Shown: piece after piece, positions 1,821 through 57,233 of the stretch
Position numbering within the stretch: the first letter of the stretch is position 1
Layout: each line of letters begins with the position of its first letter
Source: an uncultured Gammaproteobacteria bacterium
GTDB taxonomy: Bacteria; Patescibacteriota; Patescibacteriia; UBA9934
Direction of reading: 5' to 3'
Assembly: GCA_964613815.1 (NCBI GenBank)
Contig: CAZTKG010000001.1
Location: 72,895-136,894 of the forward strand
Length of the DNA stretch: 64,000 nt
The notes under the pieces: generated by a model
What the model was told of the DNA's origin: nothing
What the model saw: the letters and a program-made list of their open reading frames with translations, nothing else
Database searches by the model: none
Position numbers and translations under genes: made by a program

Positions 1821-2696
1821 CTAGTGTGCTGGTGCGAGCGTTTTTTGATTTTGATGTGTGTCGCCTTCGTGTTCTTCGTGATCGTCGTGTCCGTGGTCCA
1901 TGGTTGATACGGTTAGGAATGCGAGTGTGAGCATTGCGAATACGGTTGCTTGGATGACGCCGACAAGAAGTTCCATGAAGATGAACGGGATTGGGAGGAA
2001 GTACGAGAAGAGACTCAGCATGACGTGAATGAGGACTTCTCCGGCGAAAATGTTTCCAAAGAGTCGGAGGGATAGTGATAAGGTTTTTGCGAATTCTCCA
2101 ATTAGTTCGATGAGGCCGACAAAGAATTCGATGATGGCGACAACGATATCGATGGGTTTCTTTTTGAAAGACTTGAAGATGCCGCGAATGTTGAAGAATT
2201 TACTGACGTGGTTGATGACGCCGAGTTTCTTCATGCCCACGAAGTGTGTGGTGAGAATGGCGACCGCGGCGATGCCGAGCGTCAGGTTTAGGTCACTTGA
2301 TGCTGGGCGGAGGATCGGGATGAGTTCGAAGTGTCCGTGGAGCCAACCCCAAACGCCGATGGAGCCCGTTCCAGGGATTTGACCTAACCAGTTTGCAAAA
2401 AGAATGAAGAAAAAGATGGTGGCAACAAGGGGAAAAAAGGCTTTTGCGAGCTTTCTGTCGCCCGTGACTTTTTCGATTTCTTTGAGAGCGAATTCAACGA
2501 TTGCTTCAAATACGTTATGAATGCCTTTTGGGACAATGGATTTTCGTCTACTTGCGATGATGGCGATGATGATGAAGAAAATGACGGAAATGTAACTGTT
2601 GAATAGCGCGTTTGTGATGGTGAAATCTCCGATTTGGAAAATTGGCTCTGCGGCGAGCGGGATGGAGGCGAGAAATCGGTGATTTAGTTTATTCAT
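1821..2696 (-). CDS. atpB: F0F1 ATP synthase subunit a (probable true start at the MNKLNHRF Met; the ORF track extends it to 2804)
   Basis: Multi-TM protein with the subunit-a signature LSLSLRLFGNIFAGEVL. It precedes atpE. Confidence 0.85.
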   Translation of the reverse strand: MNKLNHRFLASIPLAAEPIFQIGDFTITNALFNSYISVIFFIIIAIIASRRKSIVPKGIHNVFEAIVEFALKEIEKVTGDRKLAKAFFPLVATIFFFILFANWLGQIPGTGSIGVWGWLHGHFELIPILRPASSDLNLTLGIAAVAILTTHFVGMKKLGVINHVSKFFNIRGIFKSFKKKPIDIVVAIIEFFVGLIELIGEFAKTLSLSLRLFGNIFAGEVLIHVMLSLFSYFLPIPFIFMELLVGVIQATVFAMLTLAFLTVSTMDHGHDDHEEHEGDTHQNQKTLAPAH

Positions 2697-2940
2697 AAAG
2701 TTTCGCGTAGTGTTTTGCCTTTTTGATGATGAATAGTGCCGTGATGGCAAATGTGACGACCAGACAGAAGATGAGGAGTGCTGGCTCTGAGCCGAGCCAT
2801 TCATCGAGTCGTTGTCCGAGGAGTGCGGCGAGAATTGCCGGGATGCCTATTGTGGCCCCGAAATCAACAGCGATTCGGATGGCAAGCCAGTAATAGTAGC
2901 GATCTGATCGAGATTTTTTAGCCTCCTCAGGTTTTGACAT
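2689..2940 (-). CDS. Small membrane protein, AtpZ/AtpI-like, upstream of the ATP synthase operon
   Basis: 83 aa with a basic N-terminus and two TM helices, immediately upstream of atpB on the same strand. Confidence 0.45.
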   Translation of the reverse strand: MSKPEEAKKSRSDRYYYWLAIRIAVDFGATIGIPAILAALLGQRLDEWLGSEPALLIFCLVVTFAITALFIIKKAKHYAKLYE

Positions 2941-3002
2941 ATAACGAGTGAATTGGCGGCCATTATATCCCTGGCGGCTTTAAAAGTCAATAAAATGTTG
3001 GA

Positions 3003-3860
3003 TTAAAACGTTAGTCCAAAGAGATTTTTGGCATTATGCGTGGTTGCTTCTGCGACTTCGTCGATGGTGATGTTTTTGATATCTGCGATTTTTTGGGCGA
3101 TGTGTTTGACGTACTGTGGTTCGTTTCGTTTTCCTCGATGGGGTTCTGGTGTGAGGTAGGGTGCATCGGTCTCGATCATGATTTGTTCGAGTGGGATGTT
3201 TTTGACGACGTTTTGTAGGGATTTGGCAAAAGTGACGATGCCTGTGATGGAAACGAGGACGTTTATTGACCGGTAGCGCTCAGCGTCTTCCTCTGTTCCG
3301 GTGAAGCAGTGGATGACGCCACGTTTTGATAGGCCGCCTGCCTTGATTTCTTCTGACAAGAGTTGGAATTGATCTTCGTGAGCATCTCGGCAGTGAATGA
3401 CGACGGGTTTATTTGTTTTTGAGGCGAATTTGAGTTGTTCCCGAACCGACGCTTCTTGGTCTGACTTGATGGTTTTGATGTCTGATCCCTCTGGGATGCG
3501 GTAATAATCTAGGCCAAATTCTCCTATTGCGACAACTTTGGGGTGATTTACGAGGGTTTCGTAGTAGGCTGGGTCAAACGCTTCTGCCCGTGTTTTGATT
3601 TTGTGAAGATTTTCTTCGGTTGGTTCGAGTTCTTCTTTGTCGAAAAATTCTTGTTTGTGCAGGTGGTTTGGGTGAAGGCCGATGGTTGCCCAGACTCCGT
3701 CGTATTGCTCGGCAAGTTCGATGCCGGTTTTGGATGTGGTGGATTGTGTGCCGACGGTGATCATGCCAACCCCCTCTTCTAAAGAGCGTTTAACGACGTC
3801 GTGGACGTCGTTTTTGTAGGCATTGAAGTGAACGTGGCAGTGTGTGTCGATGAATTTCAT
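3003..3860 (-). CDS. tatD: TatD family metal-dependent hydrolase
   Basis: N-terminal MKFIDTHCHVHF motif and TIM-barrel hydrolase motifs (GLHP, EFGLDYY). Confidence 0.85.
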   Translation of the reverse strand: MKFIDTHCHVHFNAYKNDVHDVVKRSLEEGVGMITVGTQSTTSKTGIELAEQYDGVWATIGLHPNHLHKQEFFDKEELEPTEENLHKIKTRAEAFDPAYYETLVNHPKVVAIGEFGLDYYRIPEGSDIKTIKSDQEASVREQLKFASKTNKPVVIHCRDAHEDQFQLLSEEIKAGGLSKRGVIHCFTGTEEDAERYRSINVLVSITGIVTFAKSLQNVVKNIPLEQIMIETDAPYLTPEPHRGKRNEPQYVKHIAQKIADIKNITIDEVAEATTHNAKNLFGLTF

Positions 3861-3869
3861 AGATTCTTT

Positions 3870-3917
3870 CCCATCTCGACCGCGGTGGAGAGATCTCTCG
3901 ACTACGCTCGAGATGGG
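3870..3917. repeat. Dispersed nested-palindromic repeat, copy 1 (CCCATCTCGAC...GAGAGATCTCTC...TCGAGATGGG)
   Basis: Intergenic between tatD and cvpA. Outer 10-bp inverted repeat CCCATCTCGA/TCGAGATGGG with inner palindrome GAGAGATCTCTC. The same unit recurs at about 17205, 38149, 39748, 49996, 51218 and 57187. Confidence 0.8.
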
Positions 3918-3939
3918 AGTGATAGGAGTTTGATATTTG

Positions 3940-4437
3940 CTAAACGGCTACAGAGATAATGGTTGGAAGTGCCCAGTTGATGATGTCGTTTGCGAAGCCG
4001 ATCCAGCCGAAATATTTTGATGCTTCGATTTCTGTGAGAATGGTGCTTTCTTGGAGGAAGTTATAGGCAAGGTAGCGTGTGATGCCTAGGATGACGATTC
4101 CTTCGACGAATCCTATCGCTCCACCGAAGAGCCTGTTTAGCGAGCCGATGAATGGGAGGAATGAGATGGCTTTCCAAATGCTATGGAGAACATCGACAAG
4201 CCAGCCTGCGAGACGGCTGACGAAGATGGCGATGAAGAGAAAGACGATGATGGCGATGACGGGATCTGTGAGGGCGCCGACGTGTGGTTGGAGATAGTAG
4301 ATGCCGTATCCGCCAGCGACGACACCGAGAATGAGTCCTAGGACGCCTCCGAGGGTTTTGATGAGGCCGTTGTAGAAGCCAAGTGTGATGGTGATGCCTA
4401 GGATGGCGAGGAAGAAAATGTCAGCGAGGTTTTCCAT
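3940..4437 (-). CDS. CvpA family membrane protein
   Basis: 165 aa with 4 predicted TM helices and Gly-rich loops typical of colicin-V-production CvpA-like proteins. Confidence 0.5.
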   Translation of the reverse strand: MENLADIFFLAILGITITLGFYNGLIKTLGGVLGLILGVVAGGYGIYYLQPHVGALTDPVIAIIVFLFIAIFVSRLAGWLVDVLHSIWKAISFLPFIGSLNRLFGGAIGFVEGIVILGITRYLAYNFLQESTILTEIEASKYFGWIGFANDIINWALPTIISVAV

Positions 4438-4440
4438 AGA

Positions 4441-5901
4441 TTAGTCCCGTCTTGGGAAGAGCGGGTCTCCGGTTAAAATCTTTTCTCCATTATACCTTGT
4501 TTGAATTTCTTTTGCTGTTTCGGGGATGATGATTTCAAGAGCGTTTGCCGCCCATCGAATCATGTCGGCTGTTTCTGATAGGGCTTTTTTTGCTGCGGCT
4601 TCGTCGGTTTTGATGAGTTTGAACGGTTGGGTATTCTCGATATGTTCGTTGGCTTTTCGGACGATGTCGAAGACTTGGTCGATGTAGAGCTTGAAGTCGT
4701 AGTTATCCATTGCTTTTTCGATGTCGTCGGTTGATGCTACCCAAGTATCCTTGTCGAGAACGCCGTCGAAGTATTTGTTTGCCATAGTTGCTACGCGGCC
4801 GACGAGGTTGCCAAGTTGGTTAGCGAGTTCGGCGTAGCGTTCTTCCATGCGCGTCTTGGAATAGTCTCCGTCGCCGTGAGATGGGATTTCTCGAAGGAAG
4901 AAGTAGCGGACGGCATCGACGCCGTATTCGTTTACGAGTTCTTTTGGATGGTAGACATTGCCGATGGATTTGGACATTTTCTCCCCTTCTACGGTGATGT
5001 AGCCGTGAATGAAGAGTTCGTGTGGCAATGGCACACCTGCGGATAGGAGCATCGCTGGCCAGTAGACCGCGTGGAAACGAGAGATGCCTTTTCCGATGAC
5101 GTGGATGCGCTTGACGTCGTCTGCGGTCCAGAATGTTTGGTAGAGATCGGCGTCTTCGTGATAATCAAGCGCTGTTATGTAGTTTGAGAGTGCGTCGAAC
5201 CAGACGTACATCACTTGGGACCCATCTCCTGGCACGGGGACGCCCCAGTGTTTTGCGCGTTCTTGGGATCGGGAAATGGAGAAGTCTTCGAGGCCTCCAC
5301 GGATGAAGGAGAGGACTTCGTTCTTTTTTGATTCTGGAATGAGCTTGTAGGTATCGGATGCAATGAGGTCTTCTAACTGTTTTTGATAATTTGAAAGTTT
5401 GAAGAAGTAGTTTTCTTCCTCGATGTTTTCTAGAGGTTTTTTGTGATCTGGGCAGATGCCGTCTGGGCATTCTTTTTCTGTGTAGAAGATTTCGCATCCT
5501 ACGCAGTACATGCCTTTGTAGGTTTTTTTGTAAATGTCTTCTGGTTTGCAGGCGGCCCAGAGTTTTTGTGCGCCTTTGATGTGGCGGTCTTCTCGGGTGC
5601 GGATGAATGCGTTGTAGGACAGGTTGAGGTCCGTTTGAAGGGATTCGAATTCTTTTGCAAGCTTTTCGACAAATGTCGCCGTCTCCTCCCCTGCTGCCTC
5701 TGCGGCACGAACGTTTTTGAGGCTGTTTTCATCGGTTCCTCGGAGGGCAAAAACGTTGTCATCACCGAGTTTTGATCGGTAGTAGCGCGCGAGAGCGTCT
5801 GCTTGGATGAGTTCCATGGCAAAGCCGATGTGCGGTGCGGCGTTGACGTATGGGATAGCGGTGGTGATGATGGCTTTTTTCATATGCATGGATTGTATCA
5901 T
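4441..5901 (-). CDS. metG: Methionine-tRNA ligase
   Basis: Class I aaRS HIGH-type motif (PYVNAAPHIGF) and KMSKS (KMSKSIGNV). The CPDGIC...CVGCE knuckle is typical of MetRS. Confidence 0.9.
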   Translation of the reverse strand: MIQSMHMKKAIITTAIPYVNAAPHIGFAMELIQADALARYYRSKLGDDNVFALRGTDENSLKNVRAAEAAGEETATFVEKLAKEFESLQTDLNLSYNAFIRTREDRHIKGAQKLWAACKPEDIYKKTYKGMYCVGCEIFYTEKECPDGICPDHKKPLENIEEENYFFKLSNYQKQLEDLIASDTYKLIPESKKNEVLSFIRGGLEDFSISRSQERAKHWGVPVPGDGSQVMYVWFDALSNYITALDYHEDADLYQTFWTADDVKRIHVIGKGISRFHAVYWPAMLLSAGVPLPHELFIHGYITVEGEKMSKSIGNVYHPKELVNEYGVDAVRYFFLREIPSHGDGDYSKTRMEERYAELANQLGNLVGRVATMANKYFDGVLDKDTWVASTDDIEKAMDNYDFKLYIDQVFDIVRKANEHIENTQPFKLIKTDEAAAKKALSETADMIRWAANALEIIIPETAKEIQTRYNGEKILTGDPLFPRRD

Positions 5902-17127: not shown

Positions 17128-17204
17128 ATGGGGGCATGATACCATGTGGGTATACTCGCATCTGGACTGAAATGGAGAGATTTGATCGAACATTACGTCG
17201 GTAG

Positions 17205-17229
17205 AATCTCTCCACAAGGTCGAGATGGG
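17205..17229. repeat. Dispersed palindromic repeat, half copy 2
   Basis: ATCTCTCCACAAGGTCGAGATGGG. Confidence 0.7.
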
Positions 17230-17344
17230 AAAAACTTAACGTCATTTATTTTATGCGAAGATTTGAGGCCCCGCGACCGCGGGTTGAGACGCCGGAAATG
17301 GGGCGCGAGGAGTTACGACGAAAATGGGCGTTTGAGGGATTGAT

Positions 17345-36101: not shown

Positions 36102-36151
36102 ATGTTTTCTTGGCTCCGGGGGTGGGATTCGAACCCACGACCAATTGGTTA

Positions 36152-36675
36152 CACATTATCCTGATGTTTCCATCGGGGGTGGACTATATCATCATCCCTT
36201 TGGGATGCGAGGCGCTTCGAACTGATTTTTCAGCCCTACTCCTTGCGGATAGTCTCTGAACCTTCCCTTTCGGGCTTGGCTGCTGATTGCCCTGTCTTTC
36301 GATTTAGGTTTCCAGCAATTCACCTCGTTTTCACTCCAACGTTGCCGATGGAGGCTGCGTGATGCCAGCATGAATTTCTCTATGGCAGTTTGCACAAATT
36401 AGAACACATTTGTCGAGCTCTTTTTTCACCCTTTCCCGCGATCGAGTCAGTCCATCTTGAGATATTCCAAACTCTTTTTTTGATGGGTCAAGATGATGAA
36501 AGTCGAGTGCACTCCCGCATTTTTTATAGCTGCAGATCGTGCACTGGCGCCGAGATATTCGACAGCCATTTGTCTGACTTTTTTGCGCCTTTTTGAAACT
36601 GCTTTTTTGAGATACTCAGCTCTGTCGGCGTATTTTCTCTTGTCTGGCATGGTTTTCGTATACCTGACGTGTTTC
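36152..36675 (-). mobile_element. Group I intron (about 524 nt) carrying an HNH homing-endonuclease pseudogene
   Basis: Lies between the tRNA exons. Contains the P7-like GUUCAGAGACUA element near the 3' end, a 5' splice site after U and a 3' splice site after G, and an internal HNH ORF. Confidence 0.7.
36331..36650 (-). pseudogene. HNH homing endonuclease, frameshifted (1-nt deletion near 36547-36550)
   Basis: Frame A reads MPDKRKYADRAEYLKKAVSKRRKKVRQMAVEYLG. The +1 frame then reads QCTICSYKKCGSALDFHHLDPSKKEF...DKCVLICANCHREIHAGI, a complete HNH motif set. A single G deletion in ...CTCGGCG(G)CCAG... explains the break. Confidence 0.75.
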
Positions 36676-36748
36676 ACAGCCAACTGCTCTGCCACTGAGC
36701 TACCCCGGATTACTTACGTCTTGCGACGGAAATAAGATATCATGATGA

Positions 36749-37192: not shown

Positions 37193-37446
37193 AGAAATGG
37201 AGTGTTTATATGTTAAGATGCGGTGATGGGAGTTTGTATACCGGGATAGCCATCGATGTTGAAAAGAGACTTAATGCTCACCGGTCAGGAAAAGGTGCGA
37301 AGTATACGCGTGGTCGATTGCCGCTTGAGGTTGTTTGGCGCGAAAACGATTTGTATGAGGGTGAAGCGAAGAGGCGTGAGATTGAGGTTAAGAAAATGTC
37401 GAGGCGCGATAAAGAGTTGCTAATAAAAAATGCCCTATTGGGCTAG
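37189..37446 (+). CDS. GIY-YIG nuclease-domain protein (YhbQ/UPF0213-like)
   Basis: VYMLRCGDGSLYTGIAIDVEKRLNAHRSGKGAKYTRGRLPLEVVW is the GIY-YIG core. Confidence 0.75.
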   Translation: MKKWSVYMLRCGDGSLYTGIAIDVEKRLNAHRSGKGAKYTRGRLPLEVVWRENDLYEGEAKRREIEVKKMSRRDKELLIKNALLG

Positions 37447-38148: not shown

Positions 38149-38216
38149 CCATCTCGAGCGAAGACATCTCCCATCTCGAGCGAAGTCGAGAGATCTCTCC
38201 GCTCCGGTCGAGATGG
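38149..38216. repeat. Dispersed palindromic repeat, copy 3 (1.5 tandem units)
   Basis: CCATCTCGAGCGAAGACATCT + CCCATCTCGAGCGAAGTCGAGAGATCTCTCCGCTCCGGTCGAGATGG. Confidence 0.8.
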
Positions 38217-39696: not shown

Positions 39697-39747
39697 AATG
39701 ACGCGATAGTAGCCTAATTATTGATTATTGTCCATCCTCTTTTCCTT

Positions 39748-39818
39748 CCCATCTTGAGCGAAGTCGAGAGATCTGATCACGGCAGGGCTGCGAGATCTCT
39801 CCACAAGGTCGAGATGGG
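39748..39818. repeat. Dispersed palindromic repeat, copy 4 (with 25-bp internal insertion)
   Basis: CCCATCTTGAGCGAAGTCGAGAGATCT-gatcacggcagggctgcgagatctc-TCCACAAGGTCGAGATGGG. Confidence 0.8.
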
Positions 39819-40942: not shown

Positions 40943-41067
40943 TTTGGCAAATCCTGTTCTCTCTCCTCCCCTGTTTTTATTGATTCAATTTCCTCCTTGA
41001 TACAAATGTGCTCCGTACGGACCATTTTTGTATCAAGGAGATGTTCGATGTTTTATGGCAAAAAAAT

Positions 41068-41092
41068 AGTCCTCCCGTTTTTGCGGGAGGGA
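41068..41092 (-). terminator. Rho-independent terminator of P1
   Basis: CCTCCCG-caaaaa-CGGGAGG followed on the minus strand by ACTATTTTTTTG. Confidence 0.6.
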
Positions 41093-41099
41093 GTGTTTT

Positions 41100-42428
41100 C
41101 TAGTGACCTCCTTGCCTAGAGCGTCTTGCGCGATCTCTGGAGATTAGGGGCTTGACGTAGTTCCAGTTGATTTCTGTCTGTTCTTCAATGAGTGTTGAGA
41201 GTTCTTCGAAGAGGTCGACGGGTAGTCTTTGGATGTGCGTTAGCGTTGCTCGCTCCTTGATGGAGCGTGCAAGCACGTTGCCAATTGTGACGCCCTTGGC
41301 GCGCGCTGCTTGCGCGGCGCGTAAAACGGCATTCAAGTCCATGCCGTTCAGAAATGGACTGAATTGCACGTGGGTGAAGAGTATTTGCGCGGATGCAATG
41401 AGTGCCTCGCGGCGGTCGCTGATGTGCAGTCGTTCAGAGATTTGGGTGAAAAAGACCATTCTCGCACTGACAGCGATTAGTCCTTCGAAGATTTCGGCTG
41501 CTCGATCGCGGATGTCTGGAGCAGCTAGATAAGCGCGGCTCATAAGCTCTTCATTTCGCGTCTGCCGCGCAATGTCGATTGCCTCCTGCCAGGCTTCGAG
41601 GGCAATGAGGCGATTGATGAGTTCAATCGCGAATGAAGAGGAGAGGTCACTCTGCATTGGTTCGACGAGAAGACCTGCATCATTGCAGACTCTTGTGACC
41701 ATGGAAAACAGTGATCGATTTCGACTGAGTGCTTCACGTGGGGTGACTTGATGATCGGGGTCTAGTCTTGTGAGCATTCCAGGTATATCTGATTTGTAGT
41801 GGTCGCATAGGCGGCTGACGATGCGATCGTTGAGGAGTGCTTCTCGGATGGTGGCCGGGTCTTGCAGCAGAATGCAGATACCTGCGGAGGCCATGCTTGC
41901 CTTTGCAAATGTCATCAGCTGAGCATCATCACCGATAAATTCTTGCACTGCCGGCTGATTTGGTCCAAGTATGATTTCATCGGTTTCGACCAGTCGGAGA
42001 ATCAGCTCGGCCTTGCTGCCGATGTGTGGGTCTTGTTCAATGGATTGGACGTTGGTTGGGATGCTTGCAATTCCCCACCTTCCCCCGCGAAGTACTCTGA
42101 CGCGAGCTTTGCTTGGAGTTTGCGAGATGAGGAGACCGATGCGTTCGTAGTTTGTGCCATAGCGAACGCCTGCACCGATGGGGATTGCCTCATCCTCTGC
42201 CACGCCGAGGCGCTGGAGGCCGGCGAGATACATTGCCTGAAGTTCGGCTTCGGCGTGTTCGCGTTGCTTGGGTGTGATGTCGTGCGTCTTGACGTCGATC
42301 CGGAGGTGGATGCTGACGTCACCGGGCCTTGCTGGGTCCTTCTTGTGCGGGACGCGGTCGGTGATGTGGCCGCTCGGGTGGACGATGGACCAGCGGATGA
42401 GAGAGGTGTCGGTGTCTTGCGAGTACAT
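41100..42428 (-). CDS. Hypothetical 442-aa protein P1 of GC-rich island 4
   Basis: About 58% GC, Ala/Arg/Leu-rich, predicted all-helical. No recognisable motif. Preceded 120 bp upstream by direct-repeat copy 1. Confidence 0.5.
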   Translation of the reverse strand: MYSQDTDTSLIRWSIVHPSGHITDRVPHKKDPARPGDVSIHLRIDVKTHDITPKQREHAEAELQAMYLAGLQRLGVAEDEAIPIGAGVRYGTNYERIGLLISQTPSKARVRVLRGGRWGIASIPTNVQSIEQDPHIGSKAELILRLVETDEIILGPNQPAVQEFIGDDAQLMTFAKASMASAGICILLQDPATIREALLNDRIVSRLCDHYKSDIPGMLTRLDPDHQVTPREALSRNRSLFSMVTRVCNDAGLLVEPMQSDLSSSFAIELINRLIALEAWQEAIDIARQTRNEELMSRAYLAAPDIRDRAAEIFEGLIAVSARMVFFTQISERLHISDRREALIASAQILFTHVQFSPFLNGMDLNAVLRAAQAARAKGVTIGNVLARSIKERATLTHIQRLPVDLFEELSTLIEEQTEINWNYVKPLISRDRARRSRQGGH

Positions 42429-42550
42429 GAGGGCTCCATCTCGCCTCGGCGAGATTTGGAAGGTACAAGGACGTCTCCAGGTTCCTGGCTGATGAATTCA
42501 GACAGGCAGACGGGTTTTAGCCCGTTTTTCAATCCTTTCGGAACGATTGA

Positions 42551-42613
42551 CCTTGCGGTCCAGCTTCTTCTGACGTCTCAGGGAGAAGAGGTTGAGGGTA
42601 GCAGTGATGGTGA
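42551..42613. repeat. 63-bp exact direct repeat, copy 1
   Basis: CCTTGCGGTCCAGCTTCTTCTGACGTCTCAGGGAGAAGAGGTTGAGGGTAGCAGTGATGGTGA. Identical at 47375..47437. Confidence 0.85.
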
Positions 42614-42647
42614 GGGGCGTCAATTAAAAAACCACGGAGAATGAGGT

Positions 42648-43778
42648 CTACGTGGGTTCGGGATCGGCCGTTTTGGTTCGGGTGGCGATCTCGTCGCGGA
42701 TTTGTTGAAGTGTGATGCGCGAGCCTGGGAGACAGACTCGGTCTGGGTCTGGATGTCTTTGCGTGTAGACAAGGATCGACTCGACTGCCGTTAGGCCGTC
42801 GAGGGCGGCATCTTTGAGGGGTACGATGTCCTGCTCCCAATATGTCATCGCATCGCTGAGATGCTTTGAAGCGTGTGGGAGTCTCTGGGACGCGGCGAGA
42901 CGAGTCCAGGCTTGAACCTGTTCAGCAAAGTCTAGCATCGCTACGACTTTGTACAATGAGGATGGGCTCGTGTCGCGCGCTTCGAGCGTAGTCGCTAGTA
43001 CGCGAATGGCGGCCTTGCTCAGTTGCGGGATACGAGGATGCGGGCTTGTTCCGTCAATGTCGCGCAACGCAATCCAGATTCCGAGACGGTCTTTCTGCTT
43101 GCTTTTGGGAAGGTGATGGTAGATAGACGTCTGACAATTGCCGTCGCTTTTGTTGATCAAAAAGTCAACAAGACGCTCGACGAGATCGAGCTCAATGAGT
43201 CTTTTGACGGTGTCGGAGAAGAGTTCGATGTACGTTGTATCGGTGAGGATTTCGAACATCTCTTCTGCTTGGTCGGCGCCCCATAGCGCAATTTGCGCTC
43301 CATAGATCGACTTCGGAAGCCTCAACACCAGCTTCGGGCTCAGGCCTTGTCCGATTTCGAGGAGGTTGAATAGGTTTGCGAGTTTAGATCTCACCGCGGA
43401 AAGTCTAGCGCTCCCTGCTTCATTCAGAAAGCGGTGGATAGCTCCTGGGCTGACAAGAAGTTCAATGCCATGAACTGCGCAGTCCGATGAGAGGAGCATG
43501 CAGTTTGCGAGTGTGCCTTGAGCGACGTATTGCAGCGCGTTGATTGCGGTCGGGCAGCCTGATGTTGCGAGAAGTTCGGTGAGGGCGTCGTATGATCCGT
43601 TTGGCTTGATTGGTCGAATGACGACGCGGTCCTTGGGTACTGAGCCGACTCCGAGCTTGCCGGTTCCGTCCATCATGTCGACTCGGACGGTCGTTGCGAG
43701 CTCTTCGACGACGATGCCGAAGGTGCCATCAAAAGCGATGATCGAGCCGCGGGGGAAAAGATAGCAAGGGGTATTCAT
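42648..43778 (-). CDS. Hypothetical 376-aa protein P2 of island 4
   Basis: GC-rich. N-terminal MNTPCYLFPRGSIIAFDGTFGIVVEELATTVRV... No motif recognised. Confidence 0.5.
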   Translation of the reverse strand: MNTPCYLFPRGSIIAFDGTFGIVVEELATTVRVDMMDGTGKLGVGSVPKDRVVIRPIKPNGSYDALTELLATSGCPTAINALQYVAQGTLANCMLLSSDCAVHGIELLVSPGAIHRFLNEAGSARLSAVRSKLANLFNLLEIGQGLSPKLVLRLPKSIYGAQIALWGADQAEEMFEILTDTTYIELFSDTVKRLIELDLVERLVDFLINKSDGNCQTSIYHHLPKSKQKDRLGIWIALRDIDGTSPHPRIPQLSKAAIRVLATTLEARDTSPSSLYKVVAMLDFAEQVQAWTRLAASQRLPHASKHLSDAMTYWEQDIVPLKDAALDGLTAVESILVYTQRHPDPDRVCLPGSRITLQQIRDEIATRTKTADPEPT

Positions 43779-43861
43779 GAGATCTCCATGGTTGGAAGGT
43801 GCGGCATGAGCTTACGGTTGATTTTGTTGATTGTCAATAAAAAGCCCTCACTTTCGTGAGG

Positions 43862-44794
43862 TTATCGAGGCCGACTCATCTGCGTGACGTGGTGCTGGAG
43901 CCAAGTCGTTTTTGATCCGTCTAATTCTTTTGCGAGCGCAGAGAGAATCGGCAGGATCTGTGCGGCGATATCTGTATGCAGCGTGAAGCACGCGATGCGA
44001 GCGAGGTTGAGGTAGAAGTCGCGAGCCTGATCTTTTCTGTAGAACGGGCTTCGGATTTGGTGCGCGGTGAGGTCGAGGAGTTGCTGGAGATCGTCGGCGC
44101 GGCGAAAGGCTCTTGCGATGGATGGATCTTGCTCGATGTAGGCGATGGCTTTTCTGGGTCGGAGTGCTGCTTTGCCGATTTTTTCGTTGTCTCGATCCTG
44201 GTGATCGATGAGCGATGTGAACGCGAGCGCACGTGCTTCGAGGGCGATGACGGCGAGTTGCGGCACGGTGCCGATGAGCATGCGGTAAGCGTAGCCGTCT
44301 GCGCGTCTTAAGGACTGTACGATCTCGAGTCCTGCGCGTGTTGCGAGTTTGCTTGCGCGTTCGAATTCCTCTTCCAACGCCGGTTCACTGTTGATGCAGA
44401 AGGCGTCGTTCAGGCGTTTATCTCGTTGATCACGCGCTTCTCGTGGCATCTTGCTGATGCTGTAGCGAGCCATCTTTGCGCCGTGAAGGAGGATGCGTGC
44501 ATGAAGATGCGTCGTTGGGCAGGCGTTCGTGCCACGTCTGACGAGACGGTTTGAGCCTTGGACGAGTCGATGCCAAAGTTCGCTGTTTCGAGCGATTTGA
44601 CTGGCCATGGTTCGGATTCCGCCCTGCTCGATACTCTCGAAGAGGGCGAGGAGCTGGGCGAAGGTCGATGTCTCTGGTCCGAGAATGCGTGGAAGATGCG
44701 CGCTTGTCCATGCCGCTTTTTCCGCGGCAGCTCGGAGAGCTTCTTCGCGGTTCATGTAGATGGGTCGATAAACCGTGGGGAACGAGAGGGGCAT
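43862..44794 (-). CDS. Hypothetical 310-aa protein P3 of island 4 (paralog of P5, distantly of P4)
   Basis: C-terminus ...DFYLNLARIACFTLHTD...TWLQHHV parallels P5 ...RFLYSIATLACFTRYDD...AWLTAHA. N-terminal LGPETSTFAQLL...IRTMASQIARNSEL parallels P5 LGADAVAYRNLR...IRAMSRNTGLIAAEI. Confidence 0.5.
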   Translation of the reverse strand: MPLSFPTVYRPIYMNREEALRAAAEKAAWTSAHLPRILGPETSTFAQLLALFESIEQGGIRTMASQIARNSELWHRLVQGSNRLVRRGTNACPTTHLHARILLHGAKMARYSISKMPREARDQRDKRLNDAFCINSEPALEEEFERASKLATRAGLEIVQSLRRADGYAYRMLIGTVPQLAVIALEARALAFTSLIDHQDRDNEKIGKAALRPRKAIAYIEQDPSIARAFRRADDLQQLLDLTAHQIRSPFYRKDQARDFYLNLARIACFTLHTDIAAQILPILSALAKELDGSKTTWLQHHVTQMSRPR

Positions 44795-44854
44795 TGGCTC
44801 TCCTGTGATGAAAGAACGGCCTGAGATTAGCTTGTTTTTTTGATTTTGTAAAGA

Positions 44855-46054
44855 TTACGGCATTTGAGCCCAATCCATCTCTTGCCTTTCGACTGCCCCG
44901 CCGTAGTTCCAGTAGCGTTCGTAGGCTAGGTCTGGGGTACCCGCTGCTTTTTTGATTCTTCCTTCTCTTGTTGCTGTCTTGATGTATTTTCTGAGTTCGT
45001 CTGCAGTACCAATGAAGCCTGGGTGACTTACGTCTTCATGGCCTCTAAAGTCGAACTGTTCGTCCTCAATGAACTGCATAATTGTTGGGTCCCAGAATAT
45101 ATCTTGACCGTCCTTTGTTTGGAGTCTTAGAAATCTATGCTCCAGAGATCCTTCTTGGAAGATATGGACGATTCCGAGCTTTTCGAGTTCATCTGATAAT
45201 TTTTCGGTTTCTTGCACGATGTCGTGTTGATGCTGAGCTTCACGAATTTTTCTTCCCTGTTCAATTCTCGTTTGAATGTTTGCCGCGTAGGTGATACAGA
45301 GTCCGTGCCTGTAATTGGTATTGAAACTTCGTTCTCGAGCCAGCTCACTCATAAAAAATAGGAGTTTTTTGCTCATTTTTTCCACGATTGTTTTGTCGAA
45401 TTGTTCAGCTTCATGTTCTGCGTAGACCTCTCGTTCCATTCCGATGAGTAGCGGCGCCATGATGTTGAGAAATGCTAACGGGTTTGAGTCAACCAGGAGC
45501 ATACCTCCAAATTCTTTTTGCAGTGCCTCATCCCCTTCTTGAAAAAGTTTGAGGTATTTTTCAAATGTTGCCATGTCGTCCGAAATGTCTACTTCACGTT
45601 CGTCTGCTGCGGCTTTTAGCTCGTCTAACCTTTTGTTTATTTTTTCCGGATGCATCATGTCAGCAAATCTTTCTATTGCCTCTGTTTGATATTGATAGTA
45701 GTTGATTGGATTTTCCACCTTCCTATCCATTCTTGTTCGTGTCCCGCGGATGTCTATGACGTTATCTTCTTGCAATCTTTTCGGAATGTATTCCAATCCC
45801 CTAATGAACCGGTCGGAATAGTTTCCATCCTCTGCAAGCGTGATTGTTCTACTTGTTAGTTTTCCGATTTCTTTATCTCTTAAGCGAATGATTGATTGCG
45901 CAATCCCTTCTGTGACATCCGGTGCTTGGTTTGGGTACTTTTTTTCTTGTTTTGCGCGAAATTTTTCTTGTGTTTTGTATTTGTCCTCTAGCCTGTCCGG
46001 AGCTTTGTTAAATCCCCATTTCTTCATGTAATTCATATGCAGATATAATAACAC
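44855..46054 (-). CDS. Hypothetical 399-aa protein P4 of island 4 (lower GC; shares the YxxxLC/AIxYAAxI block with P3 and P5)
   Basis: NYRHGLCITYAANIQTRIEQG aligns with the P3/P5 C-terminal block. Composition is closer to the host genome. Confidence 0.5.
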   Translation of the reverse strand: MLLYLHMNYMKKWGFNKAPDRLEDKYKTQEKFRAKQEKKYPNQAPDVTEGIAQSIIRLRDKEIGKLTSRTITLAEDGNYSDRFIRGLEYIPKRLQEDNVIDIRGTRTRMDRKVENPINYYQYQTEAIERFADMMHPEKINKRLDELKAAADEREVDISDDMATFEKYLKLFQEGDEALQKEFGGMLLVDSNPLAFLNIMAPLLIGMEREVYAEHEAEQFDKTIVEKMSKKLLFFMSELARERSFNTNYRHGLCITYAANIQTRIEQGRKIREAQHQHDIVQETEKLSDELEKLGIVHIFQEGSLEHRFLRLQTKDGQDIFWDPTIMQFIEDEQFDFRGHEDVSHPGFIGTADELRKYIKTATREGRIKKAAGTPDLAYERYWNYGGAVERQEMDWAQMP

Positions 46055-46076
46055 CCTTCCGAAGAAGGGTTGAGGA

Positions 46077-47018
46077 TCACGCGGCGGAGAGGTAGGCGGC
46101 GTGTGCGGTCAGCCAAGCTGGGCGTGGGACGCCGAGAGAGGCTGCCATTGCATCGATGCGTGGGCTCAAACGGACGACTTCATCGTCGTAGCGTGTGAAG
46201 CACGCGAGCGTGGCGATGCTGTAGAGGAAGCGATACTGCGTATGCGAGTTGTTGAACGGCGTGTGCGCCATGAAGTGCGCGAGGGTGAAGGCGCTGATGA
46301 GTCCGTCGTACTTCATGAGCTCGACGTACGCTTCTGGATGGCTCTTTAGCCAATGCAGTGCCTGCATGGGCGTGATGGGTGCCTGGGGGGTGTTGCCGGC
46401 CGTGCGCCAGAGGTCGTCGGTTCGGCAGGTGTAGGCCATGTTGATTGCACTCAGGGCGCGGCAGACCATGCCGTCGAGGCGTGGGGCGTGGGGTGGACGT
46501 GCGCGTTCGTGGGCGGCTCGCATGGCGTTGATGAGCTTGTGCGCAGCGGCGCACATGATTCTGAGGCTCAGGTCGAATTGGTCGCCGATGATGCTCTCTG
46601 ATGCGATGCCGAAGCTGCGTTTGGCGCGACGATCGCGCTTGAGACGCTTGCGGCGCTCGATGCGACCGATAGCGTTCTGGCACAGCAGCGCGTTGACGCG
46701 GATGGCGTCGGCCTTGAGCTCGAGGACGATAGCGCTGTCGGGCTGTCTGTCGGCGAGTCGCAGAACGAGGTTCATCGTTCTTCTCCATCCCTCCGGGGAT
46801 TTGATGATCTCCGCAGCGATGAGGCCGGTGTTGCGCGACATGGCTCGAATGATGCCATCGACAGCCCCGCGAAGGTTGCGGTAGGCGACGGCGTCGGCTC
46901 CGAGATCTTCGTGGAGCCTGGTCGCGTTGTAGAAGTTCATGTCCCGCTCGAGCGCGGCAGCGAATGCGGGGTTGAGTACTTGCAGGTCTGTGGGTGGGAA
47001 AGGACGTGGGTCCGTCAT
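46077..47018 (-). CDS. Hypothetical protein P5 of island 4 (start at MTDPRPF with GGAGAAAT RBS; the track ORF to 47327 is an N-terminal over-extension)
   Basis: Paralog of P3. About 60% GC. Many antisense shadow ORFs. Confidence 0.5.
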   Translation of the reverse strand: MTDPRPFPPTDLQVLNPAFAAALERDMNFYNATRLHEDLGADAVAYRNLRGAVDGIIRAMSRNTGLIAAEIIKSPEGWRRTMNLVLRLADRQPDSAIVLELKADAIRVNALLCQNAIGRIERRKRLKRDRRAKRSFGIASESIIGDQFDLSLRIMCAAAHKLINAMRAAHERARPPHAPRLDGMVCRALSAINMAYTCRTDDLWRTAGNTPQAPITPMQALHWLKSHPEAYVELMKYDGLISAFTLAHFMAHTPFNNSHTQYRFLYSIATLACFTRYDDEVVRLSPRIDAMAASLGVPRPAWLTAHAAYLSAA

Positions 47019-47374
47019 GGATTTCTCCGGGTTTTTGCCGGTTGGATCGTAGCTTTTTTTCGAAGATTGGTCAATAAAAAACCCGAGAGGTCCCTGTTGC
47101 GTTATGGCTGACGCGATTGGACTGCTCGGATGATATCGAGGTACTGCTCTAGTGATTCCACGAAGGTTCGGTTGTGACGTCCGAGGGTTGCGGCGATCTG
47201 GAGAGCGCTGAATGCTGCCTGCATGTCGCCGCAGACCATGGCGATGAGTGTGATATGGAGATATGCCCCTGCGAGGTCTGCGATGGATGTTTTTTCGGAC
47301 TCGATGACTGGTTCGCGTTCTTCTCACCCTTGCAGCGCCAGGCGCGCTCGATGGCCTCCTCGAGGAGGTCCGTT

Positions 47375-47437
47375 GCCTTGCGGTCCAGCTTCTTCTGACG
47401 TCTCAGGGAGAAGAGGTTGAGGGTAGCAGTGATGGTG
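47375..47437. repeat. 63-bp exact direct repeat, copy 2
   Basis: Identical to 42551..42613. Lies 357 bp upstream of the P5 start. Embedded in an open minus-strand frame reading ...KDIANIALVVILTPIVTITATLNLFSLRRQKKLDRKATDLLEEAIERAWR. Confidence 0.85.
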
Positions 47438-47847
47438 ACGATCGGGGTGAGGATCACGACGAGCGCGATGTTTGCGATGTCTTTGTGCGCAAGGCCGAGT
47501 TCTGGGTGCGCAAGGATGCGGTGCAGGAATCGACGGAGCTGCGCGGGACGCCGCGATGGCGGGGGGCCGAATACAGGGTGATCGTCGTCGGCTTTGCGGG
47601 CGAAGGGGTTGGGAGGTCGCCGAAGCGACTTGAACAGGTTGGAAAGGTTGAGGTTCGTGGTCAGGTCTCCCTACGGATAAGAAACGTAATCCTTGAGTGC
47701 GGGCTGCATAGCCCTTCGAATCGTCTGCAAAAGCGCACCACGATTCTACCAACTCGATTGGTTTCAATGACCTTTTTCAGCACCGAAATGATGCGGAAAA
47801 AGCTTATTGAAACAGGAGTTAATATAGCATGTTTTTGGCATTTTGTC

Positions 47848-47875
47848 AACCCTGCCGTATGGTTGCGGCAGGGTT
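47848..47875. terminator. Stem-loop overlapping the greA stop, likely terminator
   Basis: AACCCTGCCG-tatggtt-GCGGCAGGGTT with a T-rich tract on the + side. Marks the right border of island 4. Confidence 0.5.
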
Positions 47876-49995: not shown

Positions 49996-50066
49996 GATCT
50001 CTCCACAAGGTCGAGATGGGGCGCATGGTGGTAGATTTGTTCCCATCTCGACCTTGTGGAGAGATC
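49996..50066. repeat. Dispersed palindromic repeat, copy 5 (two inverted half-units around a 21-bp spacer)
   Basis: GATCTCTCCACAAGGTCGAGATGGGG ... CCCATCTCGACCTTGTGGAGAGATC, 25-bp perfect inverted arms. Confidence 0.85.
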
Positions 50067-50093
50067 TTCCCTTCCCTGTTATGATTTCCTTGT

Positions 50094-50705
50094 ATGGATG
50101 ACATCAAATCACTGGCCCAATTTGTCCTTCGCCTTGGGGATGCGAAACGTTTGGAACGGTTTCGTGGTATGCATTATTACAGCATGTATGAGAAGGAGCC
50201 GGATCGGTATGATTCGGTTGCGGATCATTCATGGCGACTTGCGTGTTTGAGTATGTTGATGGCGCCGAAATTGAGTCAGCGTGTCGACATGATGAAGATG
50301 ATTCAGATTGCGCTCATGCATGATGTGCCAGAGATCATCTGTGGGGATTCTTCGCCTTTTGATGAGGATGGCGGGCTTCAGAGTTCTGATAATCGTCTTG
50401 CGAAAGCTGAGATGGAGCGGAGAGCGGCCGAGGAAGTGTTTGAGGGGCGTGGTGATCTTTTTGATCTTTGGGAGGAGTATGAAGCGCGTGAGAGTTTTGA
50501 ATCACGTGTGGTGGCGGCGCTTGATAAGATTGAGGCGAGTATGGAAGTGGTGTGGATTCGTGACGGGAAGATGTTTGTGAAGCACTTTGATTTTTGCAAG
50601 GCGTATATGCGGAAATATGCGAGTGTTGACCCGGCGGTGGAGGTGCTTGCGGAGGAGGTGATTTTGATTATTCAATCTAAATTTGAGGCTTATGGAGAGT
50701 CTTGA
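50094..50705 (+). CDS. HD-domain phosphohydrolase (YfbR-like 5'-deoxynucleotidase family)
   Basis: HSWRLACLSMLMA ... ALMHDVPEIICGD metal-binding H...HD...D motifs. Confidence 0.7.
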   Translation: MDDIKSLAQFVLRLGDAKRLERFRGMHYYSMYEKEPDRYDSVADHSWRLACLSMLMAPKLSQRVDMMKMIQIALMHDVPEIICGDSSPFDEDGGLQSSDNRLAKAEMERRAAEEVFEGRGDLFDLWEEYEARESFESRVVAALDKIEASMEVVWIRDGKMFVKHFDFCKAYMRKYASVDPAVEVLAEEVILIIQSKFEAYGES

Positions 50706-56459: not shown

Positions 56460-57221
56460 AGTAGGGGGTTTTTTTCTTGCTAGGATAATTCGTTCGTCGT
56501 TTTCCGGTTCCATGTCGTCATTCCGTTCGAAATTCCATAAACCAATCCAAGGAGTCTGCTTGCTCAGTTTGATGTCGAATTTATCTTTAAGGAGATTGTT
56601 TAGCTGGCTTTCATCCAAGCAATGTGGGTGGGCGAGGTCTCGTTTTTGTTGTTCTGAAAAAACTTCTACGGTGAGAAGGAAGTGGCCTCCTGGTTTGAGT
56701 ACACGGTGGATTTCGTTGATGGTTTTTTCCGGGTTTTCGACGTGGTCGAGAACGTTTGAGTTGATGACCATATCAAAGTGCTCAGATTCGAATGGAATTC
56801 CCTCCCCTGTTCCGGTGATGATATTTATACCTGCTGGATAGCTGTAGAGCTTCTTGTACTGCTCTGCGAGCGGGTCTAGGCCGTATTGTTGGCTTCCGAT
56901 GAAGTGGAGGGCCGTGGAGATGCCGCAGCCGACATCAAGGACTCGACCTGTGGTGATGTCGATGTGTTGTTTGATGTCGTTTAAGAATCGATGCTGGTTC
57001 CAAAAGCGCTCGACGATTGCTGGATCTTGCGAAAAGCGTTTTGCCCAGCGTTCTTGATATGCGAGTTCGAAATCGTCTTTTTTGAACCATTTGTGAAGGA
57101 TCTCTTCTGGGAGAGCTTTTTTGATTGATTCTCGGATAGGCTTTGGGAGTCGTTGACCTAGTTTGATGATCATATGTTTATCCCCTCCCATCTCGAGCGA
57201 AGTCGAGAGATCTCTCCACAA
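56352..57221 (-). CDS. Class I SAM-dependent methyltransferase
   Basis: VLDVGCGISTALHF motif I and LKPGGHFLLT post-II. The true start is probably the MIIKLGQ Met (about 57173). Confidence 0.75.
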   Translation of the reverse strand: MWRDLSTSLEMGGDKHMIIKLGQRLPKPIRESIKKALPEEILHKWFKKDDFELAYQERWAKRFSQDPAIVERFWNQHRFLNDIKQHIDITTGRVLDVGCGISTALHFIGSQQYGLDPLAEQYKKLYSYPAGINIITGTGEGIPFESEHFDMVINSNVLDHVENPEKTINEIHRVLKPGGHFLLTVEVFSEQQKRDLAHPHCLDESQLNNLLKDKFDIKLSKQTPWIGLWNFERNDDMEPENDERIILARKKPPTSGSGVEPCNNNNEANRVSRHNREANRMEPIVNEEL

Positions 57222-57233
57222 GGTCGAGATGGG
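57187..57233. repeat. Dispersed palindromic repeat, copy 7 (most complete unit)
   Basis: CCCATCTCGAGCGAAGTCGAGAGATCTCTCCACAAGGTCGAGATGGG. Confidence 0.85.

Follow-up and report, generated by a model that had tools for sequence, protein, structure and literature searches.

The 64,000 nt of contig CAZTKG010000001.1 analyzed here, termed the window, belong to the chromosome of a marine member of the Patescibacteria (candidate phyla radiation, CPR). Between greA and the fur-zip operon the window carries an island of ∼6.7 kb (∼41070-47820) with five long open reading frames (ORFs), P1 to P5. A 63-bp direct repeat, termed R, is present in two copies, and the 4,762-bp segment between them, which carries P5, P4, P3 and P2 and is termed the cassette, is found both present and absent in metagenomic assemblies. 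The locus is interpreted, with a probability of about 0.6, as a lineage-specific, strain-variable accessory island whose inner cassette is lost or regained by recombination at the 63-bp repeats. It looks like an ordinary accessory island that varies among strains, rather than a novel type of mobile element; flexible islands in which direct repeats mediate an insertion or deletion are familiar from other bacteria.

A 579-kb scaffold of the ENA metagenome assembly ERZ23498905 (SAMN10231923) includes the window, and identical sequence is found in JGI 3300007512, JGI 3300007770 and several SRA runs. The empty allele is represented by a contig of 5,764 nt from JGI 3300007770 (L009), with the gene order greA, a 44-aa ORF, P1, fur and zip. 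By blastn, positions 1-2745 of this contig correspond to window positions 50116→47373 and positions 2679-5764 to 42613→39528, at 100% identity. The contig is thus the window minus 4825 nt, i.e., minus one R copy and the 4,762-bp P5-P4-P3-P2 segment, and the gap between greA and P1 is 622 nt compared with 5447 nt in the window. The filled form is seen, with both junctions crossed, in three or more independent assemblies (ERZ23498905, JGI 3300007512 and ERZ23498945, the last as contig L029). A reading of this DNA made from the sequence alone had described P2-P5 as flanked by direct repeats and had proposed a search for presence or absence of the segment between them. R does mark a boundary relevant to recombination: the filled allele is seen in at least 10 assemblies, and P2-P5 are missing precisely, with a single R copy left, in one. 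The sample that has the empty allele also yields a 1.3-kb cassette fragment (L034) ending 1 nt into R, and this stop at R would suit a population of both alleles, with the cassette as the minority branch. In addition, three independent runs give Logan unitigs (k=31) with breaks at exactly 30 nt within each R copy (4822 = 4762 + 2×30). The repeat thus branches in the raw read graphs, a pattern that is the same for an integrated cassette and for a circle plus an empty site.

The two R copies are 100% identical and 4825 nt apart, and they are the only two in the window (0 expected by chance). Similarity between the copies ends sharply at their edges, the flanks being unrelated. The sequence-only reading had reported the exact repeat; its first copy stands where it had been placed, and the second lies 1 nt away from the position given (Table 1). 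It had also listed an att-like duplication, a duplicated 5′ gene or promoter fragment and a recombination scar as explanations, which pointed to the right neighborhood: R holds the -10-like element of the P1 module and 21 codons of a small ORF. In copy 2 the frame from GTG 47457 reads MILTPIV-TITATLNLFSLRRQKKLDRK-ATDLLEEAIERAW… and degenerates into low-complexity sequence. Leader A, on the greA side of copy 2, is 61% GC (47439-47700) and displays a long open frame that has no start codon before this GTG. A -1 shift at an A6 run (47295-47290, CCG AAA AAA C) would join the R-spanning frame to a 45-aa ORF at 47239-47102 (MVCGDMQAAF...SRQP), which is called in the Logan contigs. The cassette start (47102-47375) is a small gene with a frameshift, or else a 5′ untranslated region (UTR) followed by a small ORF. 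The A6 run within 47102-47457, identical in sequence across all assemblies, could be a site of slippage, or a homopolymer indel that has left a pseudogene. From the same GTG, the empty allele yields a very basic ORF of 44 aa (isoelectric point, pI, 11.9) across R.

These small frames have no recognizable relatives. The conceptual translation of leader A has no Pfam match, the R-spanning, 45-aa and 44-aa translations fall into no known family, and the 45-aa ORF gives nothing significant in Pfam, PHROGs, NCBIfam or PADLOC; a 102-aa A-R-S ORF is not on record. R contains a weak imperfect palindrome (CTTCT..CTGA-GACG-TCAG-AAGAAG). A structured RNA or attC-like hairpin was considered and rejected, as folding is no better than that of shuffled sequences (z 0.23 and -0.91 for the two strands) and there is no Rfam match. 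A tRNA fragment was likewise discarded, there being no tRNA near R. As a separate observation, unitigs of three runs (k=31, Logan) all stop at 47493, within ∼47461-47523, and two SPAdes contigs from another sample (L011 and L029) share exactly 55 nt of sequence, 47515-47461. These stops indicate an extra branch point ∼55 nt before repeat copy 2, either a single nucleotide polymorphism (SNP) or a third structural variant.

The five ORFs lie at 41100-47330, all on the minus strand as described earlier, in a window where strand bias is strong and the majority of genes are minus-strand. The island is 54.1% GC overall and 57.2% without P4, compared with 47.1% in the window outside it, with P1 at 54.9%, P2 at 55.2%, P3 at 57.1%, P4 at 42.6% and P5 at 60.4%. 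The anomaly is real, though weaker than the contrast of 58% with 45% that had been given from the sequence alone. Relative to 64 other ORFs of the window (47.9 ± 3.7%), the z-scores of the four high-GC genes are 1.9-3.4. At third codon positions (GC3) the z-scores of these genes are just 1.1-2.3, and first and second positions (GC1 and GC2) are raised too. A profile of GC and tetranucleotides had been suggested as a check; in strand-symmetrised tetranucleotide distance, 2-kb chunks of the island score 27-31, above all background chunks (maximum 23). The proportion of Ala, Arg, Gly and Pro is 27-36% in the four high-GC proteins compared with 23.3 ± 2.4%, and is host-like in P4.

P4 forms a sharp low-GC block (∼44800-46000) inside the island, host-like in GC or lower, as the sequence-only reading had anticipated. 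The antisense shadow ORFs that had been ascribed to every gene overlie P1, P2, P3 and P5, with none over P4. Because this 42%-GC block sits sharply within high-GC surroundings, the island is regarded as a mosaic. The mosaic GC, together with the differing outside relatives (those of P3/P5 on a 53%-GC contig, those of P4 on 37-41%-GC, CPR-like contigs), fits a stepwise assembly of the island. A secondary insertion of the P4 block might have left short repeats at its edges, but no convincing ones were found.

That the island is specific to its lineage is suggested by the genomes of relatives. The closest GreA proteins among GTDB representatives are 43-51% identical, and those with an informative title come from metagenome-assembled genomes of Patescibacteria, Parcubacteria or Uhrbacteria, several of them marine, which places the host among uncultivated CPR bacteria; in none of the relatives are P1-P5 or the fur-zip pair found near greA. 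In one relative ∼8 kb lie between greA and the ABC-F gene, and this interval encodes a histidine kinase, an M23 peptidase and a DEAD-box helicase. Ordinary genes thus occupy the syntenic interval, in keeping with a compositionally distinct, lineage-specific island. Precomputed Pfam annotations of the window (586-58360) list housekeeping genes and many Pfam-less hypothetical proteins.

It is proposed that two alleles exist in the population, A-R-cassette-R-P1 (common) and A-R-P1 (rare), and that the cassette consists of P5, P4, P3 and P2 plus the small leader ORF, bracketed by R. Most probably, RecA-type homologous recombination between the R copies would loop out and delete the cassette, with no dedicated recombinase required, and in the reverse direction a 4,825-bp circle could re-integrate by a Campbell-type event. 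The minimal length for RecA recombination (MEPS) is ∼25-70 bp, and an identity of 63 bp is above the usual minimum. General homologous recombination is preferred over a site-specific system because no recombinase is found, the foreign composition extends beyond the repeats, and viral and plasmid collections contain no copy of the cassette. The direction of the exchange, like its mechanism, is inferred.

Several points weigh against this interpretation. The empty allele is known from one 5.8-kb contig of one sample, which may, with low probability, be a repeat-collapse misassembly. Only the filled form would then exist, the empty contig would be an assembler collapse, and R would be a fixed duplicated fragment of the small ORF or of the P1 promoter or 5′ UTR. 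A collapse of this kind would agree with one short contig set against at least 10 filled assemblies, with the presence of cassette DNA (L034) in the same sample, and with the fact that k-mer graphs with k <= 63 cannot tell both paths apart. However, unresolved repeats normally break contigs, as they do in the Logan unitigs, and rarely join A to B; JGI assemblies of that period generally had a maximum k above 63. Moreover, the cassette is fragmented (1.3 kb) and stops at the repeat while A-R-B is contiguous over 5.8 kb, as is expected if the cassette is the minority branch. A further difficulty is that homologous recombination explains loss of the cassette and not the origin of a sharply bounded, identical 63-bp duplicate between unrelated flanks, and sharp identity blocks are a signature of att sites as well. 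Since the origin of the duplicate is unexplained, assembler collapse is kept in consideration as an unlikely explanation, and some smaller weight is left to the idea that the cassette is a little integrative element. In that case R would represent attL and attR, and a 4,825-bp circle would form through a host Xer-like recombinase or a novel one encoded within P2-P5. The perfect identity block with its unrelated flanks, the precise empty site and the palindrome in R are all compatible with integration; in addition, the cassette end plus R, if circular, would make a promoter-like module directed into the first ORF of the cassette. Yet the palindrome is weak and folds no better than shuffles, no recombinase-like domain is found in P2-P5 or in ∼58 kb of the window, no circular-junction contig was found, neither the cassette nor the repeat core is present in IMG/VR or in phage and plasmid collections, and high GC is found outside both R copies (leader A, P1). 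An integrative element is considered decidedly doubtful.

The foreign origin of the region can also be questioned. A few window genes outside the island are as GC-rich as the island genes and the GC3 deviation is modest, so that foreign origin is likely but unproven; Pfam-less genes are numerous in the genome according to the precomputed annotations, so ORFan status alone is not unusual here. These facts would suit a native region of fast-evolving, lineage-specific genes whose GC stems from an Ala/Arg-rich protein composition and not from horizontal transfer, as would the raised GC1 and GC2, the abundance of Ala, Arg, Gly and Pro in the proteins, and promoter modules that resemble the host's own module after greA. 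A native origin is nevertheless thought quite improbable: the tetranucleotide distances exceed those of every background chunk, leader A, which is non-coding, is 61% GC too, the only outside relatives of P3/P5 are on a 53%-GC contig, the sharp P4 block indicates a mosaic, and relatives are without these genes. As to function, no significant homology points to one, and the structural models have a mean confidence (pLDDT) that is moderate for P3 (63) and poor for P4 (41). That the cassette is an autonomous CPR mobile cassette, recombinase-less or with a novel recombinase, which inserts site-specifically into a 63-bp site in a small ORF and carries an effector module (P4 as hydrolase, P3/P5 as chaperone or immunity proteins) acting for an episymbiont against its host or competitors, is very unlikely indeed. 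Probably lost, and perhaps regained, by homologous recombination at the 63-bp repeats, the cassette is best seen as the variable part of an accessory island.

This preferred interpretation can be compared with known systems. No integrase, transposase or phage gene is present in ∼58 kb (precomputed Pfam, window 586-58360), and for a classical integrative island or prophage remnant an integrase or recombinase is lacking among P1-P5 and the small ORF as well. The sole tRNA found is ∼4.4 kb from the island, with ABC-F, zip and fur in between, so that an insertion at a tRNA or tmRNA, as in classical integrative islands, is not seen, and R has no Rfam match. Flanking direct repeats and a one-copy empty site are present, the empty site in one contig, but the repeats do not delimit foreign DNA, given the high GC outside both copies (leader A 61%, P1 55%). 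The suggestion of a degraded integrative element in the sequence-only reading therefore has no positive evidence. INPHARED, PLSDB and IMG/VR hold no DNA or protein match, the phage matches being 30-bp chance matches only; a phage or plasmid origin was rejected, since no record in these collections matches the cassette or the repeat core. No contig with a circular junction was found. The repeat core gave 0 matches in a metagenome contig collection, which evidently lacks the samples studied here.

Integron cassettes are single genes without a promoter, each with an attC at its end in the form of an imperfect palindrome, and are found near IntI and attI. The segment differs from them in that there is no IntI, the four genes each have their own promoter-like module and R forms no strong hairpin. 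It differs from an insertion sequence or transposon in having no transposase and no inverted repeats at the segment ends, and a 63-bp duplication is far longer than typical target site duplications. It is also unlike a diversity-generating retroelement, whose two repeats differ at adenines, in having copies that are 100% identical and no reverse transcriptase in the window annotations. Integrative mobile elements exploiting Xer (IMEX), for example the CTX phage and the gonococcal genetic island, have no integrase and use the host Xer recombinases. The cassette resembles them in having flanking direct repeats and no recombinase of its own, but IMEX use ∼28-bp dif-like sites near the replication terminus, with two Xer-binding arms of ∼11 bp around a spacer of 6-8 bp, whereas R is 63 bp in a small ORF or leader, with a weak palindrome. 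The dif site and the Xer genes of the host lie outside the window.

There is a close likeness to the flexible (metagenomic) genomic islands of marine populations, a concept said to come from Rodriguez-Valera and colleagues: a fixed position (greA | fur-zip in the present case), deviant composition, accessory genes, and presence or absence among co-occurring, near-identical genomes. The island here differs in being very small (6.7 kb), in having neither the tRNA and integrase of "additive" islands nor the glycosylation genes of "replacement" islands, in a variable part bounded by a perfect 63-bp repeat, and in residing in a reduced CPR genome. With deletion between direct repeats or Campbell-type integration it shares identical repeats, a one-copy alternative allele and no need for a recombinase; however, no circular intermediate or recombination was directly observed here, and the origin of the duplicate is left unaccounted for. 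No report of this locus or these samples was found in the literature, where the sole CPR "hypervariation" precedent (PMC6851277) describes something else, namely a single gene with tandem codon repeats.

Table 1. Features of the greA/fur-zip island and its borders, in window coordinates
Feature	Position	Strand	Description
P1 intrinsic terminator	41070-41091	-	stem plus T-run; right-hand end of island
Leader B and P1	41100-42550	-	outside the repeats; in filled and empty alleles alike
P1	from ATG 42428	-	442 aa (377 aa in ENA call); 55% GC; ORFan; outside the repeats
Repeat copy 1 (R)	42551-42613	.	63 nt, exact; -10-like TACCCT, 17 nt after cassette TTGACG
Cassette end	42614-42647	-	T-run and -35-like TTGACG, 4 nt before repeat copy 1
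P2	42648-43778	-	376 aa; 55% GC; last gene of cassette
Hairpin (terminator) after P3	43861-43846	-	directly follows P3
P3	43862-44794	-	310 aa; 57% GC; basic, pI 9.9; paralogue of P5
P4	44855-46054	-	393-399 aa; 42.6% GC; unrelated to P3/P5
P5	46077-47018	-	313 aa; 60% GC; basic, pI 9.7; all-helical
P5 module	47074->47046	-	own T-run and TTGACC-17-TACGAT upstream
Cassette start	47102-47375	-	continuation of R-spanning frame, A6 run, 45-aa ORF
Repeat copy 2 (R)	47376-47438	.	63 nt, exact; codons 7-27 of open frame MILTPIV-TITATLNLFSLRRQKKLDRK-ATDLLEE...
Leader A	47439-47820	-	high-GC, non-coding or pseudogene-like; between promoter and repeat copy 2
Post-greA promoter	47849->47821	-	TTGACA-17-TATATT, 11/12, TG-extended, near-consensus; points into island
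greA terminator hairpin	47848-47875	-	12-bp stem; overlaps sigma70-type promoter

P3 and P5 belong to one family. The two proteins align end to end from ATG 47018 (blastp E = 4e-16, 23% identity over 273 aa) and have in common the ARIACFT/ATLACFT and TWLQHHV/AWLTAHA blocks by which their paralogy had first been recognized. The true start of P5 is probably ATG 47018, giving 313 aa, and not GTG 47327, on account of the Logan and JGI gene calls and the end-to-end alignment with P3. A query with P5 against 5.8 billion proteins returned its own cluster only. With a P3+P5 profile, exhaustive HMMER searching of 1.84 billion representatives detected one genuine relative, P0004 (E = 5e-7); another candidate, P0003, was dismissed as a spurious repetitive match. 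P0004 is from a 972-nt contig with 53% GC (L027; JGI 3300035250, Ga0373648_0246025) that displays two tandem family genes, the C-terminus of one member followed by the N-terminus of a second. The latter begins MTTTDTRPFP…, compared with MTDPRPFP… in P5, and a (T)D-x-RPFP motif conserved at the N-terminus of the family is suggested by these sequences. The family is very rare and is in tandem in both known occurrences.

The AlphaFold2 (AF2) model of P3 is all-alpha and resembles a helical repeat. Foldseek with this model gives nothing at E<=1e-3, and identities to TPR-like or designed helical-repeat proteins are 5-14%. Against Pfam, P3 and P5 have no TPR or Sel1 match and nothing at E<=1 save a sub-threshold EAD2, so they differ from TPR and Sel1 proteins in that no sequence match to TPR-clan profiles is found; the P3/P5 profile has no match among PDB sequences either. 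P3 and P5 are proposed to be old paralogues of a helical-repeat family. The earlier idea of an effector or toxin-like family stays speculative, the two proteins being modeled only as generic helical-repeat scaffolds.

The 3′ end of P3 (43913-43980) is a hotspot of assembly breaks, where one contig starts at 43912 (L034) and another at 43934 (L033). The latter carries one SNP in the P3 3′ end, GAATTAGACGG→GAATTACACGG, which suggests microdiversity in the C-terminal region of P3. An apparent length variant of P3/P4 in L029 was traced to a 10-N scaffold gap within the same interval.

P4 had been counted as a third, more distant paralogue in an expanding gene family. It proved to be unrelated to P3 and P5 (blastp E > 0.7; hhalign probability 0.07%), which leaves two paralogues among the five proteins, and the LCITYAA block quoted for it belongs to another family, of which it is the conserved Cys motif. 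Two distant relatives of P4 were found, P0009 (27% identical) and a 351-aa ORF on contig L037, both in low-GC contexts (37% and 41%) with unrelated, ordinary neighbors. The protein consists of an N-terminal part of ∼240 aa, helical and charged, and a C-terminal domain with Cys253, His306 and Asp322, the last in WDPTIMQF. Invariant in all three family members are the Cys (in R-x-G-x-C-x-T), the His, WDPTIMQF, GFIGT…LR and ER, so the statement that none of the five proteins has a catalytic motif has to be revised: C253, H306 and D322 occur in Cys-His-Asp order in 3/3.

The predicted topology around these residues, a helix and then three strands, has an order compatible with a papain-like fold, where a Cys at the start of a helix faces a beta-sheet with the His and Asp. 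The arrangement in P4, a Cys in G-x-C, then His, then Asp in WDPT, recalls transglutaminase-like and papain-fold hydrolases; P4 differs from these in having no Pfam or PDB sequence match. P4 profiles give nothing even at E<=10 against Pfam, including families of the clan such as Transglut_core, or against PDB sequences, and the AF2 model (pLDDT 41) is too poor for a fold search. From its conserved residues P4 may be a thiol hydrolase or peptidase. Beside the P4 homologue on L037 are two paralogous, lipoprotein-like genes of ∼200 aa (2573-3175 and 3284-3904, minus strand) that share the long block …QQQAQYA.GQP.P.FDWSLERDVAIQLYQARN…, and an ISL3-like transposase ORF is at the start of that contig, with no relation to the island seen.

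P1, P2, P3 and P5 are high-GC, Ala/Arg-rich near-ORFans. Nothing significant was found for P1-P5 in Pfam, PHROGs, NCBIfam and PADLOC; for P2 the same holds in PDB, phages, plasmids and IMG/VR. P1 has no PDB sequence match, and a query with it against 5.8 billion proteins recovered its own cluster only. P1 and P2 show no relation to the P3/P5 profile.

Every island gene is preceded by a module of a hairpin or T-run followed by (A)TTGAC(A/C/G), 17 nt and TAnnnT. A like module is present after greA, and also before the P3/P5-family gene on the unrelated contig L027, where a T-run and TTGACA-17-TATTCT separate the two genes. The island genes would be transcribed separately, each behind its own promoter-like module. 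At the cassette end the -35-like TTGACG is 4 nt before R and the -10-like TACCCT is inside R, so in the filled allele P1 may have a weak promoter module of its own, with the -35 element contributed by the cassette end and the -10-like element by R. In the empty allele P1 would be ∼620 nt behind greA and ∼390 nt downstream of the strong post-greA promoter. The two hairpins that had been said to bound the island exist, one as the terminator of P1 and the other as that of greA.

Other elements of note are in the vicinity of the island. Between the P1 terminator and the fur-zip operon is a near-perfect palindrome of 48 nt (40993-41040; 24-nt arms, 88% complementary, no spacer), which is probably a Fur/Zur-type operator of that operon. 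Palindromic intergenic repeats of ∼30-50 nt are found at 3869-3919, 38168-38216 and 57185-57232, 82-97% identical and in both orientations, with partial copies near 39747-39774, 50020-50067 and 17156-17230. They look like REP-like (repetitive extragenic palindromic) elements or shared terminators. A tRNA-Thr(UGU) gene at 36111-36709 (minus strand), found by the intron mode of ARAGORN and missed by its default mode, is split at position 33 by a group I intron of 524 nt (matched by Rfam Intron_gpI with 95 bits at 36160-36425). Within this intron is an ORF like an HNH-type homing endonuclease at ∼36695-36447 (…DFHHLDPSKKEF…CANCHREIH), and a separate GIY-YIG ORF is present at ∼37210-37446 on the plus strand.

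CPR/Patescibacteria have tiny genomes, and gene gain and loss and the genes of host dependence are poorly understood in them. The locus is a concrete case, testable by polymerase chain reaction or at the level of reads, of gene flux without recognizable mobility genes. Two very rare protein families, both open to characterization, emerge from it as well: the P3/P5 helical-repeat family and the P4 family with its invariant Cys-His-Asp. As the genes are dispensable and lineage-specific, two of them of helical-repeat type and one with a possible catalytic triad, they might provide protein-binding or enzymatic factors for host interaction or conflict and not for housekeeping. Where genomes are 100% identical apart from one cassette with two alleles, the genes of that cassette can be recognized as dispensable, and selection on them is probably related to niche or conflict.

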